Source of the DNA: Nannocystis sp. SCPEA4
GTDB lineage: Bacteria > Myxococcota_A > Polyangia > Nannocystales > Nannocystaceae
Reading direction: 5' to 3'
Assembly (NCBI RefSeq): GCF_026626685.1
Contig: NZ_JAPNJX010000001.1
Span: 140,752-204,751, forward strand
Length of the DNA: 64,000 nt
Part shown: piece after piece, positions 24,470 through 59,250 of the stretch
Position numbering within the stretch: position 1 is the stretch's first letter
Layout of the letters: each line of letters begins with the position of its first letter
The notes under the pieces: generated by a model
The model's database searches: none
Told to the model about the DNA's origin: nothing
Seen by the model: the letters and a program-made list of their open reading frames with translations, nothing else
Program-made: the position numbers and the translations under genes

Positions 24470-24545
24470 CGCCCTCATGAACATGCCTCATGAACATGTC
24501 CTTTAGAACATTATCTCAAGGACATGGCCTTTCGGACGCCCCCTC
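24470..24545. repeat. Array A of 14-bp-periodic palindromic repeats (units tcatgaACATGcc / tcatgaACATGtcc / tttagaACATTatc / tcaaggACATGgcc / tttcggACGCCccc)
   Basis: CATG/CATT cores at 24482, 24496, 24509, 24523. Divergent intergenic region between DUF1993 (-) and the RCC1 lipoprotein (+). Confidence 0.7.
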
Positions 24546-24660
24546 CGCGATGGGGCTCGTCGCTCGCCAGCGCGCACGAGCTCGGCCGGGACGGCGTGGC
24601 AACGTGAGCTCGAAGACCGAGGGCGCGCAAACGAGCGCCGAACCATGGCTCACTTCAAAC

Positions 24661-26262
24661 ATGAAGCGCGGACTCATCAGCGTGTTGTGCTTGCTCGCGT
24701 GTCAGGGCGGCCAGGAGACCACCGCGACGAGCGGCACCACGACGGCGACGACCTCCGGGGCGACGGACACGTCGACCACCACGAGCGCCACGGAGACCGC
24801 CGGGCCGGTACCGACCGGCACGAGCAGCCAGACCACAGACACGACCGCGCCCGGGACCACGGACAGCAGCACCTCCGGACCCCCGACCACCGGCACCACC
24901 GACCCGGCGATGACCGGCACGACGAGCGTCGGCGAATCGACGACCAGCACCGGATCGACCACGCTCGACCTCGAGACCACCGGCACCACCACCACCGGAC
25001 CCGACAGCTGCGGCGACGGCATCGTCGATGCCGACGAGCTCTGCGACGACGGCAACGCGACGCCGCACGACGGCTGCGAGGACGATTGCAGGCCGACCCT
25101 GCTCGATGTCCAGGGCGGCCTGGTGCACACGTGCGTGCTGTTCGGCAGCGGGGCCGTCAAGTGTTGGGGCGGAAACCCGTCCGGTGAGCTCGGCTACGGT
25201 CACACCGATGCCCTCGGCGACGAACCCGGCGAGCTGCCGACTCCCGATCTCGACCTCGGCGGCAAGGTGGTCGAGCTCGCCGCCGGCGACGCGCACACCT
25301 GCGTACGCCTGGACGACGGCGCCGTGCGCTGCTGGGGCGAGAATACCTACGGCCAGCTCGGCTATGGTCATACCGATCCCGTCGGCGGTGCACCCGGGCA
25401 AATGCCGCCACCCGACGTTCAGCTGGGCGGACCCGCCGTCGCGCTGAGCGCGGGGCTGCGACACACGTGCGCCCTGCTCGCCACCGGTGATGTGCGCTGC
25501 TGGGGCTGGAATTACTACGGCCAGCTCGGGCTCGGCCATACCGAGGACATCGGCGACGAACCCGGCGAGATGCCGCCTCCGCCCGCGCCGATCGGCGACG
25601 ACATCGAGAGCATCAGCTCCGGCTGGCACTTCAACTGCGTCACGCGGGCGGGCGGCGAGGTTCGCTGCTGGGGCAGCGATTTCGACGGCAGCCTCGGCGA
25701 CGCCGACGGCGTTGTCGACTCCCGCGGGGACGAGCCCGGCGAGCTTCCCACGCCGCCGGTGCTGGTCGGCGCACCCGTCGCCCTGCTCAGCGGCGGCCAC
25801 AGCACGGTGTGCACATTGCTGACGGACGGCGCGGTCCGGTGCTGGGGTAACGGCGAATACGGGGCGCTCGGCGCCGGGAACACCGAGGATCGCGGCCACG
25901 ATCCCGGTGACATGCCGCCGCCGGCCGTCGACCTCGACGGAGTCGGAGTTCAGCTGGTGACCCGATTCCTGCGCACCTGCGTGCGCATGGACACCGGCAA
26001 GCTCCGGTGCTGGGGCGACGCGAACGCGAACGGTGCCGCCGACCACATCGGCGACGAGCCGGGCGAGATGCCGCCGCCCGACGTCCCTCTGCCGGGATCG
26101 GTCCTGCGGGTCGGCGGAGGCCACGGTCACATGTGCGCGATCATGGTCGACGGCAACCTTCGCTGCTGGGGATACGGCATCGACGGCCAGCTCGGCCTCG
26201 GCGAGAAACAATCGGTCTATTATGATGAACTCGCCGACAAGCCGCCGATCCCGCTGTTCTGA
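24661..26262 (+). CDS. RCC1-repeat (beta-propeller) lipoprotein with N-terminal Myxococcus cysteine-rich repeat
   Basis: Signal MKRGLISVLCLLACQGG (lipobox). Thr-rich linker. DSCGDGIVDADELCDDGNATPHDGCEDDCR Cys-rich repeat. Seven RCC1-like blades (HTC.L...G.V.CWG.N..GQLG.G). Confidence 0.85.
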   Translation: MKRGLISVLCLLACQGGQETTATSGTTTATTSGATDTSTTTSATETAGPVPTGTSSQTTDTTAPGTTDSSTSGPPTTGTTDPAMTGTTSVGESTTSTGSTTLDLETTGTTTTGPDSCGDGIVDADELCDDGNATPHDGCEDDCRPTLLDVQGGLVHTCVLFGSGAVKCWGGNPSGELGYGHTDALGDEPGELPTPDLDLGGKVVELAAGDAHTCVRLDDGAVRCWGENTYGQLGYGHTDPVGGAPGQMPPPDVQLGGPAVALSAGLRHTCALLATGDVRCWGWNYYGQLGLGHTEDIGDEPGEMPPPPAPIGDDIESISSGWHFNCVTRAGGEVRCWGSDFDGSLGDADGVVDSRGDEPGELPTPPVLVGAPVALLSGGHSTVCTLLTDGAVRCWGNGEYGALGAGNTEDRGHDPGDMPPPAVDLDGVGVQLVTRFLRTCVRMDTGKLRCWGDANANGAADHIGDEPGEMPPPDVPLPGSVLRVGGGHGHMCAIMVDGNLRCWGYGIDGQLGLGEKQSVYYDELADKPPIPLF

Positions 26263-26445
26263 GCGCAGCCGGGTCCACACACGATCGTCGGCGCACCCGC
26301 CTGGTCGCGCGCTTCAGGTGAGGCACCGAGACGAACACGACGCCCCGAGGCGTGTCTTGCACCATGCGACTCGCCCCGCCCACGCCCGACACTTTCTCTC
26401 TCGCAGCGCACCCCAGCAGTCGCCGCGTGATACGCTCGCTCCGCT

Positions 26446-57468: not shown

Positions 57469-57630
57469 GTCCTCGTGCCGCGACCGGGGCATTTCGAGCA
57501 GTCCTCGCGCCGCGATCCGACAGGCTGGTAACGCACGAGGAGGGCGCAACTCGGGCGATATGCAACCGACGAGCAACGCGGCCAGCGTGGCGGAGAACCA
57601 GCGAGGGCTGCTCGAAATGCCCCGGTCGCG
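57469..57630. repeat. 162-nt element bounded by a perfect 23-bp inverted repeat (CGCGACCGGGGCATTTCGAGCAG ... CTGCTCGAAATGCCCCGGTCGCG)
   Basis: Seen in sequence in the 560-nt noncoding gap upstream of the histidine kinase. Candidate MITE or long-stem ncRNA. Confidence 0.5.
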
Positions 57631-57964
57631 GCACCAGGCCACGCCGGCTGCGCTGCGCGCCGGTTGCATGCTGCCCGGGCGGCGCCGGCCTCGCGCCTGG
57701 AGAGGGCGCGTCGAGGCGCCCCGGTCGCGGCGCTGGCTCTCTCGCGGCGTCTCGCGCGGCCGCGGCCCCCCGCGCCGGGGGGCGGTCCCGGTCGTGGGCG
57801 GAGGAGAGCGCGCGCTCGGCTGTCGGCCGCGGGTCGGTCACGCCGCGGCAAGCGTAGCGCCGGGTCGCGACGGCGCCGCCGCGACCCCGGGCCGGACCCC
57901 TCGGAGCGGCCCCGATTCGCAACTGCGCAGGCGAACGCGCGTCACCCGGCGGGTGCGAGCCGCG

Positions 57965-59194
57965 TCACTCCCAGTCGAAATCGGGCGGCTGGCCCTTGAG
58001 CCGGAACCGCCGCGGCGTGAACTTGCGCCGCGCGCCGGTCGAGTCCGGCTTGTGCGGGTTGAGCAGCACGTAGGCCGAGCCGAGGGGCGCCGCGAGGTGC
58101 CACCAGTTGCTGCGACGGACCGCCGACTCGTGCACGTAGCGCTCGAAGAACTCGCCCTGCTCGCGCAGCCACGGACTGCCGGGCGCGGTGAGGTTCTGCC
58201 CGCCGCCGGCGTAGATGTTGGAGCGCCGGCGCAGGTCCTCGACGTCGACGCCGCCGGTGATCTGCGGCTCCCACGGGTCCATCACCACACCGCAGCGCAC
58301 GCTGTCGCGGTGCATGTCCTTGAAGGTGACGAACGCGAGGTGGTTGAACTTGCCGTCCTCGTCGGGCTCGCTGCCGGGCGAGCCCTCGTAGCCGCCGCCG
58401 ACGTCGGAGTGCACGCCCGGGTACTCGACGTCGACCCCGGTGACGACCGTGAGCGGGAAGTTCTGCCGCACCTCGTGGCGCGCGACGAAGTGACTGATCC
58501 CGCGAGCGTCGGTGGCGTCGATGTACATGTTCTGGCCCGGATCGGAGTCGTCGCCGGCCATGCCGAACGAGCCGACGGTGTCGTAGACGCCGACGAAGCG
58601 CACGCTGATCGTCGGGATCTGCTGGCGCATCGCCATGTTGACCAGGTTGACGAAGGTGCGGGCCAGCGCCGCGCCGCGCGAGAAGCCGTAGACGTCGACG
58701 GTCTTCATGCCCGGCCCCGGCACCTCGCCGCAGCGGTCCTTGAGCCAGAAGAACGCCCGGTTGAGCCGCTCCTTGCCGCCGAGTCCGCCCATCAGGCCGC
58801 CGACGTCGTGGCCGAGGTCGCCGATCAGCCGCCCGCCGCTGACCACCCCCGAGGCCACCGCCGACATCGGGTTCCACCACACCGTGCCGCGCGCCGTCTC
58901 GCGCCCCGCCTGCCGCACCCGAGCCCCGACGTCCATCGAGCCGACGCCGTCGACGTACATCTTCTTGAGCAGCGCGTCGGCGCTGCTGCCCTCGCGCCAC
59001 ACCGTCCACAGCCGGACCACGTTGGTGTGCTTGCCCTTGGGCTTGTCGCGGTCGCGGTTGTTGTTGGTGCCGTCGAAGAACACCCCGGCGTGCAGCTTGC
59101 GGTGCGGGTTCTGACACGGGCACGTGGCCCCCGGCGGCTGGGCCGGGAACGCCTGCGCCTCCCCGCGGACTCCGTTGGCGACCGCGCGCGACAT
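57965..59194 (-). CDS. Tle1-like phospholipase effector (DUF2235 alpha/beta hydrolase), paralog b
   Basis: Hallmark GVFFDGTNNN near the N-terminus, GxSxG as YGFSRGA, GVYDTVGSFG, H in NHLAFV. 409 aa. ~52% identical to the upstream paralog. Confidence 0.8.
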   Translation of the reverse strand: MSRAVANGVRGEAQAFPAQPPGATCPCQNPHRKLHAGVFFDGTNNNRDRDKPKGKHTNVVRLWTVWREGSSADALLKKMYVDGVGSMDVGARVRQAGRETARGTVWWNPMSAVASGVVSGGRLIGDLGHDVGGLMGGLGGKERLNRAFFWLKDRCGEVPGPGMKTVDVYGFSRGAALARTFVNLVNMAMRQQIPTISVRFVGVYDTVGSFGMAGDDSDPGQNMYIDATDARGISHFVARHEVRQNFPLTVVTGVDVEYPGVHSDVGGGYEGSPGSEPDEDGKFNHLAFVTFKDMHRDSVRCGVVMDPWEPQITGGVDVEDLRRRSNIYAGGGQNLTAPGSPWLREQGEFFERYVHESAVRRSNWWHLAAPLGSAYVLLNPHKPDSTGARRKFTPRRFRLKGQPPDFDWE

Positions 59195-59250
59195 CGCTTA
59201 CCCGTCCTTTCGAACATGCCCTGTCAGACATGTCTGCAAGTTCAAATCAC
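59188..59250. repeat. Array I of 14-bp-periodic repeats (cgACATcgct / tttcgaACATGccc / tgtcagACATGtct / gcaagttCAAAtca)
   Basis: Cores at 59215, 59229, 59243. Lies between the two Tle1 paralogs; its first unit contains the start codon of paralog b. Confidence 0.55.

Follow-up and report, generated by a model that had tools for sequence, protein, structure and literature searches.

Phased arrays of a 10-bp palindrome with a 14-bp period at Nannocystis gene ends: an apparently new REP-like element kept in register across species

Phased palindromes in the window

The window, that is, the whole 64,000-nt stretch of the Nannocystis sp. SCPEA4 contig that was analysed, carries in its intergenic regions short palindromes that abut at a 14-bp period. 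Genes were called from GC3; their stops were validated against database calls and their starts are approximate. The following features were located.

24473..24538, unstranded: array A, in a divergent intergenic region upstream of an RCC1-repeat gene; phased decamers at 24492-24501 (GAACATGTCC), 24506-24515 (core CATT) and 24520-24529 (GGACATGGCC), half-unit GGAC at 24534-24537
28425..28531, unstranded: array B, in the convergent region flanked by a small lipoprotein-like gene (stop 28405, plus strand) and a Ser/Thr kinase gene (stop 28520, minus strand); left half-unit CTGTCG, cores at 28439 and 28453, two degenerate positions, cores at 28495, 28509 and 28523, all in one 14-bp phase
40884..41019, unstranded: array C, filling the tandem intergenic region from a Ser/Thr kinase-TPR gene (stop 40883) to a PEGA gene; cores at 40887 (CCTG), 40901, 40915 and 40929, three degenerate positions, cores at 40985, 40999 (CCTG) and 41013, in one phase
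44380..44417, unstranded: array D, weak, in a divergent intergenic region; cores CATG 44383, CATA 44397 and CCTG 44411
45716..45737, unstranded: element E, one perfect palindrome GGACATGTCC (45716-45725) and the inward-facing half-unit AGACAGC, 21 nt past the stop of a BNR-repeat gene (45695)
46616..46695, unstranded: array F, six units with cores at 46619, 46633, 46647 (CATT), 46661, 46675 and 46689 (CATC), starting on the TAG stop of a 247-aa gene in a convergent intergenic region
46711..46737, minus strand: canonical GC-rich terminator hairpin followed by TTTCTT, between the stop of a trypsin-like gene and array F
52817..53001, unstranded: degenerate two-unit modules GACCTGNCC-TTCG-AGACACG at about 52817, 52872, 52925 and 52980, with a spacing of about 55 nt, within the long intergenic region that separates two minus-strand genes
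53063..53100, unstranded: array G proper, three units with cores at 53066, 53080 and 53094, 22 nt downstream of the stop of a minus-strand HEAT-repeat gene (53125)
56349..56428, unstranded: array H, five CATG units (56352-56408) and a CATC unit (56422), filling the 83-nt convergent intergenic region from stop 56340 (plus) to stop 56424 (minus)
59203..59235, unstranded: array I, left half-unit CCGTCC followed by units whose cores start at 59215 and 59229, flanked by two tandem minus-strand Tle1-like genes and 34 nt downstream of the stop of the upstream one (59269)

The earlier note had listed at least nine arrays of three to nine units. We found that F has six units and H five plus the CATC unit, that A, D and I have two to four units, and that B and C each consist of two blocks sharing one phase (2 + 3 and 4 + 3 units), while E and most of G drop out. 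Element E is one full palindrome and one half-unit rather than three units, the range 52805-53100 given for G holds a phased array only in its final 42 bp (53061-53102), with dispersed two-unit modules over 52805-53000, and no array in the window has nine good units. The modules at 52817..53001 are relatives of the family and do not form a 14-bp array. The earlier placement of the arrays with respect to stop codons held, as did the siting of A and D between divergent genes. Array A is preceded by a 13-bp duplication (two copies of CCTCATGAACATG), and the last CATG of array C includes the predicted ATG of the PEGA gene (41014). The hairpin at 46711..46737 is the ordinary terminator of the convergent trypsin-like gene and lies outside the repeat family; its position next to array F shows that both kinds of element co-exist.

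Motif, phase and placement of the family

The claimed excess of the motif in the window held on recounting: GRACATGYCC occurs 12 times against 0.50 expected, a count reached in 0 of 100 shuffles, and GACATGTC occurs 8 times against 0.98. The 14-bp period was likewise borne out, since the commonest CATG-to-CATG distance in the window is 14 bp, with 16 pairs where 13 bp has 3 and 15 bp has 1, and harmonics follow at 28 bp (9), 42 bp (5) and 56 bp (6). Among nearest-neighbour CATG distances in 3' intergenic regions, 223 were 14 bp, 4 were 13 bp and 1 was 15 bp. These results confirmed that the 14-bp palindrome arrays are real.

Read from its core, the unit is an RRRCATGYYY decamer every 14 bp, most commonly AGACATGTCT, and arrays of the family contain two to seven abutting dyad units. 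CATG has purines on its left side and pyrimidines on its right; of 146 units, 2 carry T at -1 and 3 carry A at +4. Neither the spacers nor the flanking positions hold a conserved tetranucleotide; the commonest spacers (CTTC, TTCG, CGAA and GAAC) each account for less than 7%. Isolated decamers occur at baseline frequency and, of the 109 decamers found between convergent genes, 107 have phased partners, so units need partners. At the array ends, the flanking phased positions retain only the half that faces inward: TG.CC on the left (105 of 146 have the G) and GG.CA on the right (98 of 145 have the C). Because arrays end in inward-facing half-units, the elementary dyad would be TGTCC-N4-GGACA, and the 5-4-5 dyads at the array ends are complete and have an AT-rich centre. 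Judged by this pattern of bases, the spacer rather than CATG is the probable centre of the functional dyad.

Units of the same array agree at 3.36 of 8 positions in direct orientation, the same as units of different arrays (3.42 of 8), and mean unit identity is 0.40 in Nannocystis arrays against 0.80 in chance matches from other taxa. A simple tandem repeat or local duplication was rejected because the likeness between units is no greater inside an array than across arrays; judged by their sequences, the array units are not recent duplicates. The earlier note had named two outcomes as fatal to its proposal, a motif lacking enrichment or positional bias and arrays that are near-identical local copies. 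We found massive enrichment with positional bias, and the arrays are not such copies.

After removal of ascertained regions, array occupancy was 52% for convergent, 19% for tandem and 4% for divergent intergenic regions (Fisher P = 1.8e-5). Arrays lie 0-35 nt past stop codons, with a median start about 15-29 nt past the upstream stop, long intergenic regions included, and are essentially absent from coding DNA. Decamer density was 7.6 per kb in convergent intergenic regions and 0.13 per kb in coding DNA, against an expected 0.04 per kb. Array density was roughly 170-570 per Mb in Nannocystis DNA mostly ascertained by the search pattern itself, and a Nannocystis genome probably carries thousands of arrays. 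The comparison with REP/BIME elements made in the earlier note was upheld as regards position: the arrays are a dispersed, extragenic, high-copy family with a lineage-specific consensus, strongly biased to gene 3' ends and convergent regions and rare in divergent ones. They are palindromic and unrelated in sequence to known REPs, and we found no description of 14-bp phased palindrome arrays in the literature.

Uptake sequences are common within genes. A motif of this kind, which would spread by biased uptake and recombination and whose inverted pairs would be parked in terminators as in Neisseria and Pasteurellaceae, could account for a genus-specific, highly over-represented 10-mer that often forms inverted pairs past gene ends. 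There is a precedent for uptake sequences being tied to terminators (PMC1852404). We regard this explanation as highly improbable: a DNA uptake sequence would be expected to be frequent in coding DNA and to function as a single copy, whereas the decamer is depleted from coding DNA relative to convergent regions, its isolated copies are at baseline, and biased uptake leaves the strict 14-bp tandem phase unexplained.

Conservation in Nannocystis, RNA pairing and mobility

Arrays were present in 7 of 7 Nannocystis genomes sampled and, in a scan of 185,579 species, absent from four sister-lineage loci and 76 other matches. This distribution of the motif showed that the family is restricted to the genus Nannocystis. 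Array F has six-unit orthologues in equal register in L001, L002, L003 and L006, making five lineages with the window, and the 84-nt array has no indel across the five. Its spacers are identical at only 0.28-0.35, against a non-homologous background of 0.38, whereas its cores are identical at 0.73-0.93 (G at -2, 0.73; C at +5, 0.75) and the flanking protein is only about 60% identical. Since the spacers are saturated yet the motif is conserved, selection acts on both sequence and phase, and the aligned orthologues showed purifying selection on motif and register across species. Variants specific to one unit are inherited vertically (e.g., GACATGCCC in the same row of all five lineages).

Array C has orthologues in L001, L002, L003 and L132 with a CATG/CCTG toggle at matching unit positions, array D has a two-unit orthologue in N. 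exedens (L003 8959-8990), array H has one at L001 19330-19389, and modules akin to those at 52817..53001 occur in orthologous intergenic regions of L002, L003 and L006. In the close strain L132, array B has an equal number of units and differs only by point changes and one 1-nt indel; unit number is constant between strains about 95% identical. At one orthologous convergent region, three species have arrays and two have only GC-rich canonical hairpins.

We then consider an RNA gene-end element that needs no factor, in which a cluster of hairpins, either formed by adjacent units (10-bp stem, 4-nt loop) or long and nested, would terminate or attenuate transcription both ways and protect mRNA 3' ends, like E. 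coli REPs and "cluster hairpins". REPs are described as dual terminator and stabiliser elements of 3'UTRs (bioRxiv 10.64898/2026.03.23.713779), and transcription can be terminated by clusters of hairpins (PMC8355165). No stable hairpin can form from one unit alone; two are required for pairing. The mean folding energy of two adjacent units is -9.8 kcal/mol, compared with -6.6 kcal/mol for 26-mers drawn at random from the genome, and 70% of arrays have a pair at or below -10 kcal/mol. We counted 21 perfectly complementary adjacent pairs against 4.1 expected, and 6.8% of adjacent pairs are complementary at at least 7 of 8 variable positions against 1.4%; the excess lies in reverse-complement neighbours, and direct copies show none. 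Nested stems are predicted in arrays F and H, and units 1 and 5 of H are perfectly complementary over 12 nt. The hairpin that the earlier note placed at 28491..28516 proved real: array B forms a perfect 12-bp stem with a TTCG loop at 28490-28517, followed by TTTTT (-25 kcal/mol, z = -5.8). The start of arrays just past stops, their convergent enrichment and the interchange of array and canonical hairpin at the orthologous region above also fit this explanation.

Other results speak against it. At least four T in the following 8 nt were found in only 1 of 41 tandem-region arrays (T fraction 0.18, A 0.20), a terminator consensus scan flagged 1 of the 9 window arrays, and array B alone fits the definition of a canonical intrinsic terminator. 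The canonical intrinsic terminator was thus rejected as a class, 40 of the 41 arrays having no U-tract, and canonical GC-rich terminators already exist in the same genome, often next to arrays. On the sense strand, G.U pairs (81) were not in significant excess over A.C (67; P = 0.29), only 47% of variable-position pairs of adjacent units are Watson-Crick, and the folding energy of real arrays (-26.2 kcal/mol) did not differ significantly from that of arrays reassembled with units picked at random (-24.2; P = 0.06). The RNAalifold covariation term over five orthologues was +2.64, giving no support, and Rfam gave no match at the gathering threshold. A structured RNA element, for which covariation and strand-specific tolerance of G.U would be expected, was rejected with the excess of perfect neighbours as a caveat. 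A helix also leaves unexplained the RRR/YYY polarity, the exclusion of T(-1) and A(+4), and the indel-free 14-nt register with saturated, non-tetraloop spacers. RNA pairing of adjacent units, as earlier proposed, therefore survives for a minority of perfect pairs and fails on U-tract, sense-strand G.U excess and covariation; as an account of the whole family we consider it doubtful.

Independent recognition of half-sites does not predict complementary neighbours at non-consensus positions, which would thus reflect either selection for hairpins or birth by inverted duplication. Point mutation could not give rise to thousands of phased arrays; whatever they do today, their origin has to be mobile or templated. 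A selfish or semi-domesticated REP/BIME-type element, recognised as ssDNA hairpins, spread by a dedicated enzyme such as a RAYT-like HUH transposase and tolerated only in harmless 3' intergenic DNA, would suit a high-copy, genus-specific, palindromic and extragenic family that avoids divergent (promoter) regions and whose sequence is conserved beyond structural need. The excess of reverse-complement over direct neighbours hints that arrays grew through inverted copying, array A falls inside a 2.15-kb segment (24274-26422) missing from L132, and higher-order tandem copies occur (e.g., a 48-bp unit seven times at L001 20577-20882). We nevertheless judge it unlikely: selfish spread would leave the purifying selection on phase unaccounted for, and it sits poorly with the orthologous arrays of equal unit count and register in five lineages, their vertically inherited variants, the constant unit number between close strains and the absence of a GTAG/CGTC head. 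A tblastn search with IS200 and YafM queries, a weak test over 485 kb of Nannocystis DNA (a small genome fraction), found no IS200/RAYT-like ORF at E < 1.

Duplex recognition and known systems

We favour, at a probability of roughly 0.4, a Nannocystis-specific REP/BIME-like gene-end element read on duplex DNA by a putative sequence-specific dimeric factor; it is apparently new and kept in register by selection across species. As in operator arrays, the dyads are sequence-specific, fixed in spacing and under selection. The idea of a dimeric binder polymerising along the array is preferred over RNA pairing because it fits the strict phase, base polarity and strand symmetry better, and the RRR/YYY polarity counts for a duplex factor because a helix does not need it. 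A 5-4-5 dyad with an AT-rich centre is the usual geometry of sites for helix-turn-helix (HTH) dimers, which gives a lead only. One dimer would occupy each 5-4-5 dyad and neighbouring dimers would abut every 14 bp, about 120 degrees apart, so that the array would be coated by protein. The coated array may mark or insulate the place where a transcription unit ends; it could, for instance, impede read-through towards the next gene, converging or downstream, or affect local topology. The hairpin potential of the transcribed copy would probably also protect 3' ends or attenuate transcription in the manner of REPs. A single spread in the ancestor of the genus, by templated insertion or an inverted-duplication process and followed by fixation, is the probable origin of the family. 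Several observations count against a duplex factor: an RNA-level or ribosome-linked role explains the tight placement at stop codons at least as naturally, the complementary neighbours are not predicted by it, and array B is a textbook intrinsic terminator.

The metboxes of MetJ are 8-bp AGACGTCT palindromes in 2-5 repeats without gaps, and the heptad arrays of the omega repressor are other cooperative tandem operators. The Nannocystis arrays share with them short palindromes abutting at a fixed period, no tolerance in spacing, variable array length, units that would be dimer sites and lone units probably without function, and the decamer AGACATGTCT resembles the metbox. MetJ and omega arrays stand in the promoters of a small regulon with a period of 7-8 bp, whereas the Nannocystis arrays, with their putative binder, lie past stops at an estimated thousands of loci, avoid promoter regions and have a 14-bp period. 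Intrinsic terminators and hairpin clusters (PMC8355165) are alike in lying directly past stop codons and in hairpin potential on both strands, and array B adds a hairpin with a U-tract; the arrays differ in the general lack of a U-tract, the sequence-specific purine/pyrimidine polarity, the strict phase and the lack of compensatory covariation. DNA uptake sequences (DUS/USS; PMC1852404) are also genus-specific 10-12-mers, hugely over-represented and found as inverted pairs in 3' intergenic DNA, whereas the Nannocystis motif is nearly excluded from coding DNA, occurs in phased arrays only and has no known link to competence.

In distribution the arrays are like the REP/BIME elements of Enterobacteria and Pseudomonas (repetitive extragenic palindromes and their mosaic clusters), which are extragenic, palindromic, high-copy, lineage-specific in sequence and clustered in arrays. 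Both favour sites past the 3' ends of genes and convergent intergenic regions, seldom lie in divergent ones and may occur inside operons. REPs plausibly act as terminators, as stabilisers and as binding sites for proteins (bioRxiv 10.64898/2026.03.23.713779). A REP unit of about 35-40 nt, an imperfect palindrome of about 20-40 nt with its own stable stem-loop and a GTAG/CGTC head next to the stem, has no counterpart in the 14-bp Nannocystis unit (10-bp palindrome and 4-bp spacer). BIMEs alternate in orientation with defined linkers, whereas the Nannocystis units abut head to tail in an exact 14-bp register, and the arrays further differ from REP/BIME elements in being conserved unit for unit across species while their spacers are saturated.

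Array layout in the window and position at gene ends

The earlier note described at least nine arrays, listed as A to I, of CATG-centred 10-bp palindromic units repeated at a strict 14-bp period. We counted the motif in the window, whose G+C content is 71.5%, and found 12 copies of GRACATGYCC against 0.50 expected, a number that no shuffle reached, and 8 copies of GACATGTC against 0.98 expected. The distances between CATG cores showed a sharp maximum at 14 bp (16 pairs, compared with 3 at 13 bp and 1 at 15 bp), with harmonics at 28, 42, and 56 bp. These results bore out the over-representation and the strict period, and the shuffles together with the distance histogram excluded chance or low complexity as the source of the arrays. 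Avoidance of CATG as a restriction site was also rejected, as CATG is not depleted in the window (252 observed, about 166 expected from base composition). In 14-nt register the arrays read as follows.

Arrays of the window in 14-nt register
Array F, 46616-46695, after a 247-aa gene: six units
Array H: five units plus one
Arrays B and C: two blocks apiece, with one shared phase within each array
Arrays A, D, G, and I: 2-4 units each

The claim of up to six consecutive units in F and H was borne out. Ranges E and G had been overstated: E is a single palindrome with a half-unit, and in G only the final 42 bp form a phased array, the remainder being two-unit modules dispersed at intervals of about 55 nt. 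Other repeats and unit-like sequences were recorded as follows.

Repeats and unit-like sequences beside the arrays (L001, N. punicea; L006, a related Nannocystis locus)
26917-28080: about 1.1 kb without coding signal, GC3 flat in all frames
26928-27418: tandem repeat of 53-bp period, 9.3 copies, 89% match, one GCATGTTCG unit-like core in every copy
39075-39102: two-unit look-alike GGGCATGACCCTTCGGACATGG within a kinase gene
41013-41016, + strand: CATG of a terminal unit overlapping the predicted ATG of a PEGA gene, an overlap conserved in four species
41597-41619: two-unit look-alike AACATGTCGTTCGGGTCATGTCC within the PEGA gene, encoding GKHVVRVMSEG
44383-44386, - strand: CATG of a terminal unit overlapping the predicted ATG of a 479-aa ORF
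52817-53001, L006 10457-11336, and L001 11085-11480: degenerate two-unit modules, GACCTGNCC-TTCG-AGACACG or GGGAC
L001 20577-20882: 48-bp higher-order repeat in about seven tandem copies, each of two 14-bp units and a 20-nt GC-rich segment

Within long intergenic regions the degenerate modules recur about every 55-95 nt, some of them in higher-order tandem repeats, and their TTCG always lies on one strand, here the non-transcribed strand of the flanking genes. A CRISPR-like reading of the modules in G was rejected because the repeats are degenerate and orthologous across species. The 48-bp repeat of N. punicea shows that arrays can amplify as larger blocks. The 53-bp repeat differs in copy number in the close strain N. 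pusilla GCA_020073745.1 (L132), where about 107 bp less aligns. The PEGA-gene look-alike has the same sequence in the related loci L001, L002, L003, and L132, and both coding look-alikes probably reflect chance or coding conservation. The overlaps of CATG with start codons may arise by chance, from wrongly called starts, or from a connection with translation initiation.

We called genes with a GC3-based caller, whose stop codons match the database calls, and computed position statistics on 485 kb of Nannocystis DNA. In intergenic DNA the decamer RRRCATGYYY reached 7.6 per kb between convergent genes, 2.1 between tandem genes, and 0.49 between divergent genes, compared with 0.13 in coding sequence and about 0.04 expected, which confirms a positional bias of the motif. 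After leaving out the intergenic regions ascertained by the search pattern, arrays occupied 52% of convergent (11/21), 19% of tandem (18/96), and 4% of divergent regions (2/45; Fisher P = 1.8e-5). In tandem regions the median array start lay about 15-29 nt past the upstream stop and distant from the next start, also where the region was long. The arrays are gene-end elements.

Within the window, arrays are limited to 24-60 kb. Of the eight convergent regions that lack them, six lie in the first 24 kb and two at 42.9 and 50.2 kb; most carry strong GC-rich hairpins instead. A comparison for mutual exclusion between arrays and canonical hairpins gave strong non-array hairpins in 74% of the convergent regions that lack arrays and in 56% of those that have them. 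The convergent region at 50158-50254 lacks an array and holds two long canonical GC-rich hairpins, as does its counterpart in L006, while the orthologous regions of N. punicea, N. pusilla, and N. exedens hold arrays of 3-4 units, so that array and canonical hairpin replace each other at one site.

Unit anatomy and cross-species conservation

Alignment on CATG gave a symmetric unit, (a/c)GGA-CATG-TCC(t)(t), with purines on its left side and pyrimidines on its right, from which T(-1) and A(+4) are nearly excluded. At the first phased position outside the arrays the inward-facing half alone is retained, TG.CC at the left edge (G in 105/146) and GG.CA at the right edge (C in 98/145), and one period further out is background. 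Every spacer therefore has a complete inverted pair on both sides, and the elementary module is a 14-bp dyad, TGTCC-N4-GGACA, abutted head to tail. The 4-nt spacers have an AT-rich centre and are otherwise unconstrained, with neither palindromes nor stable tetraloops enriched, and the inner and outer halves of terminal units did not differ in conservation. Decamers standing alone occur at baseline frequency, and 107 of the 109 convergent intergenic decamers have phased partners. When all 3' intergenic regions are taken together, the nearest neighbouring core lies at 14 bp in 223 cases, at 13 bp in 4, and at 15 bp in 1.

Array F is orthologous in five lineages, with six units in perfect register and 0 indels over 84 nt. 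In four lineages the array begins at the stop codon (in L006 about 190 nt downstream, past a duplicated gene end), and in all five it terminates with an RGACA half-unit. Identity across lineages was 0.73-0.93 at core positions, 0.73 at G(-2), and 0.75 at C(+5), compared with 0.28-0.35 pairwise in the spacers, which is not above unrelated flanking rows (0.38). Unit-specific variants are inherited, as GACATGCCC stands at the same row in 5/5 lineages. Since the protein flanking array F is only about 60% identical among these species, neutral positions are saturated, and purifying selection holds the motif and its exact phase alike.

The unit numbers of arrays B and C are unchanged between strains of about 95% identity, so over such a time scale the arrays are neither hypervariable nor visibly mobile. 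The differences were point changes, mostly in spacers and including a CCTG/CATG toggle, and the sole indel was 1 nt in the T-run after the B hairpin. Units matched at 3.36 of 8 variable positions within an array and at 3.42 between arrays; same-array units are thus no more alike than different-array units, which excludes recent local tandem duplication, the origin the earlier note had named as fatal to its proposal. Two segments are absent from L132, which is otherwise 94-96% identical, and represent strain-level gene gain or loss.

Segments absent from L132
24274-26422: 2.15 kb, with an RCC1-repeat/DUF4215 gene and array A
36044-37254: 1.2 kb, with one copy of a DUF4215-type paralogue

RNA hairpins or duplex DNA as the possible selected form

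The earlier note had also proposed that neighbouring units can pair as RNA, and pairing potential was indeed found. The mean folding energy of neighbouring units is -9.8 kcal/mol, compared with -6.6 for random 26-mers from the genome. Neighbours with perfect complementarity exceed expectation five-fold (21 vs 4.1), and complementarity at 7 or more of 8 positions reaches 6.8% vs 1.4%. The folds of arrays F and H contain nested stems, array B forms a -25 kcal/mol hairpin followed by UUUUU, and at the convergent region after a 110-aa gene three species carry arrays where the window and its closest relative have GC-rich hairpins alone. A cluster of factor-free RNA hairpins at gene ends would account for these properties, but we consider it unlikely, as G.U pairs on the sense strand (81) were not above A.C (67; P = 0.29), the RNAalifold covariation term on five orthologues was positive, that is, a penalty, and a T-rich tract followed just 1/41 tandem-region arrays. 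Real arrays were barely stabler than rebuilds from randomly drawn units (-26.2 vs -24.2 kcal/mol, P = 0.06), and a helix explains neither the purine/pyrimidine polarity of the units nor an indel-free register with free-running loops. Canonical intrinsic terminators were ruled out as a general description by the missing U-tract, and a structured RNA family by the lack of Rfam match, covariation, and G.U bias. The excess of perfect reverse-complement neighbours without an excess of direct copies may instead record the birth of units by inverted copying.

Cooperative binding of a putative dimeric protein to duplex DNA would predict the polarity, the fixed register, the strand symmetry, and the complete 5-4-5 dyads. 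We therefore tentatively favour, with a probability of about 0.4, a phased protein-binding platform on duplex DNA that would mark or insulate the ends of transcription units, with RNA hairpin effects secondary.

Taxonomic range, origin and relation to known systems

The gene content of the window is typically myxobacterial, and the BNR-repeat protein encoded at 44634-45695 matches one from Nannocystis sp. SCPEA4 with 100% identity, which served to identify the organism. The following genes were also recorded.

Other genes in the window
30707-33427, + strand: 906-aa protein containing the shoulder and repeat domains of major vault protein (Pfam PF11978, PF17795)
33507-33572, + strand: Rfam tRNA match, 41.9 bits
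35931-35998, + strand: Rfam tRNA match, 49.7 bits

At E <= 1e-30 the vault-domain protein has 747 homologues, which occur widely across Myxococcota genomes and MAGs with identities of 60-98%, and in relatives its gene usually lies downstream of a TerB-like gene. Both tRNA matches are AT-rich for this genome and missed by default ARAGORN; a relaxed run, which also makes low-scoring calls inside coding regions, called 35928-36001 as a tRNA with anticodon UUA ('Stop'), possibly ochre-suppressor-like or degenerate, a call to be read with caution.

As the earlier note had suggested, we compared orthologous intergenic regions and found CATG-at-14 arrays at matching sites in all the syntenic loci, which came from N. 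punicea, N. pusilla, N. exedens, and a metagenome. Four CATG cores spaced by 14 bp were then sought in the genomes of 185,579 species, and at least 120 stretches were returned. Among the matches listed, 43 came from seven Nannocystis assemblies and had diverged units (mean identity 0.40; RRR/YYY fit 0.89), whereas the 76 analysable stretches from other taxa had a mean unit identity of 0.80 and an RRR/YYY conformity of 0.49; 61% of them were near-perfect tandem repeats (unit identity at least 0.8), and none resembled the Nannocystis arrays. In other taxa and in viral contigs the same CATG pattern picks up perfect 14-bp minisatellites, unlike the Nannocystis arrays, and the viral contigs scanned held simple minisatellites only. 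Four loci from the nearest lineages outside Nannocystis (a Myxococcales MAG, a JGI contig, a Nannocystaceae MAG, and an Enhygromyxa MAG; 12-23 kb), whose major vault protein homologue is 62-74% identical, contained 0-1 phased pairs and 0-2 decamers, so the family is specific to the genus Nannocystis. The sister lineages are represented by assemblies GCA_016793465.1, GCA_041389865.1, and GCA_046484755.1, and Myxococcus xanthus is likewise without the family. We found no description of it in the literature on myxobacteria and Nannocystis.

Arrays are estimated to stand at several thousand gene ends per genome. Thousands of phased arrays in one genus are beyond the reach of point mutation. Their likely origin is REP-like, with templated insertions occurring in a burst in the ancestor of the genus. 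A weak search of the 485-kb Nannocystis sample found no ORF resembling IS200 or RAYT (IS200-like REP-associated tyrosine transposase). We consider a selfish element of the RAYT type an unlikely reading of the arrays.

Taken together, the arrays are real, abundant, selected, genus-specific gene-end repeats of the extragenic-palindrome kind. If confirmed, they are bacterial extragenic repeats of a new class, in which the signature of selection is unusually clear: an exact 14-bp register and a motif kept over saturated spacers in a single genus. They would also offer a tractable way to study what REP-like elements do. From the constraints on phase and polarity a specific reader acting in trans is predicted, which could be caught with a simple oligonucleotide. 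The arrays flag 3' ends in very GC-rich genomes, where terminator prediction is hard. The motif helps gene-end annotation in Nannocystis, a natural-product producer, and may provide small insulators that work in both directions for the engineering of myxobacteria.

Among known kinds, REP/BIME (repetitive extragenic palindromes and their mosaic clusters) comes closest, sharing the extragenic position, the palindromes, the abundance, the clustering, and the bias to 3' ends and convergent regions. In E. coli, REPs are described as dual terminator/stabiliser 3'UTR elements (bioRxiv 10.64898/2026.03.23.713779). The resemblance suggested before thus holds for position and palindromic nature, but the self-folding unit of 20-40 nt and the GTAG or CGTC head of REPs are not present in the Nannocystis arrays. 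MetJ metboxes, which are cooperative operator arrays, offer a formal likeness, whereas the Nannocystis arrays sit at gene ends genome-wide. To our knowledge, REPs have no counterpart of the exact 14-bp head-to-tail register or of unit-for-unit conservation across species.

A more specific scheme, to which we give low odds, is that a genus-specific dimeric DNA-binding protein, possibly a domesticated transposase or nuclease, would polymerise along the phased TGTCC-N4-GGACA arrays after thousands of stop codons and would serve between transcription units as a general roadblock terminator or as an insulator. We know of no precedent in bacteria for a DNA-bound terminator protein as a genome-wide mechanism, and such a system would be a bacterial counterpart of proteins of this sort, for example mTERF or Reb1/TTF-I.
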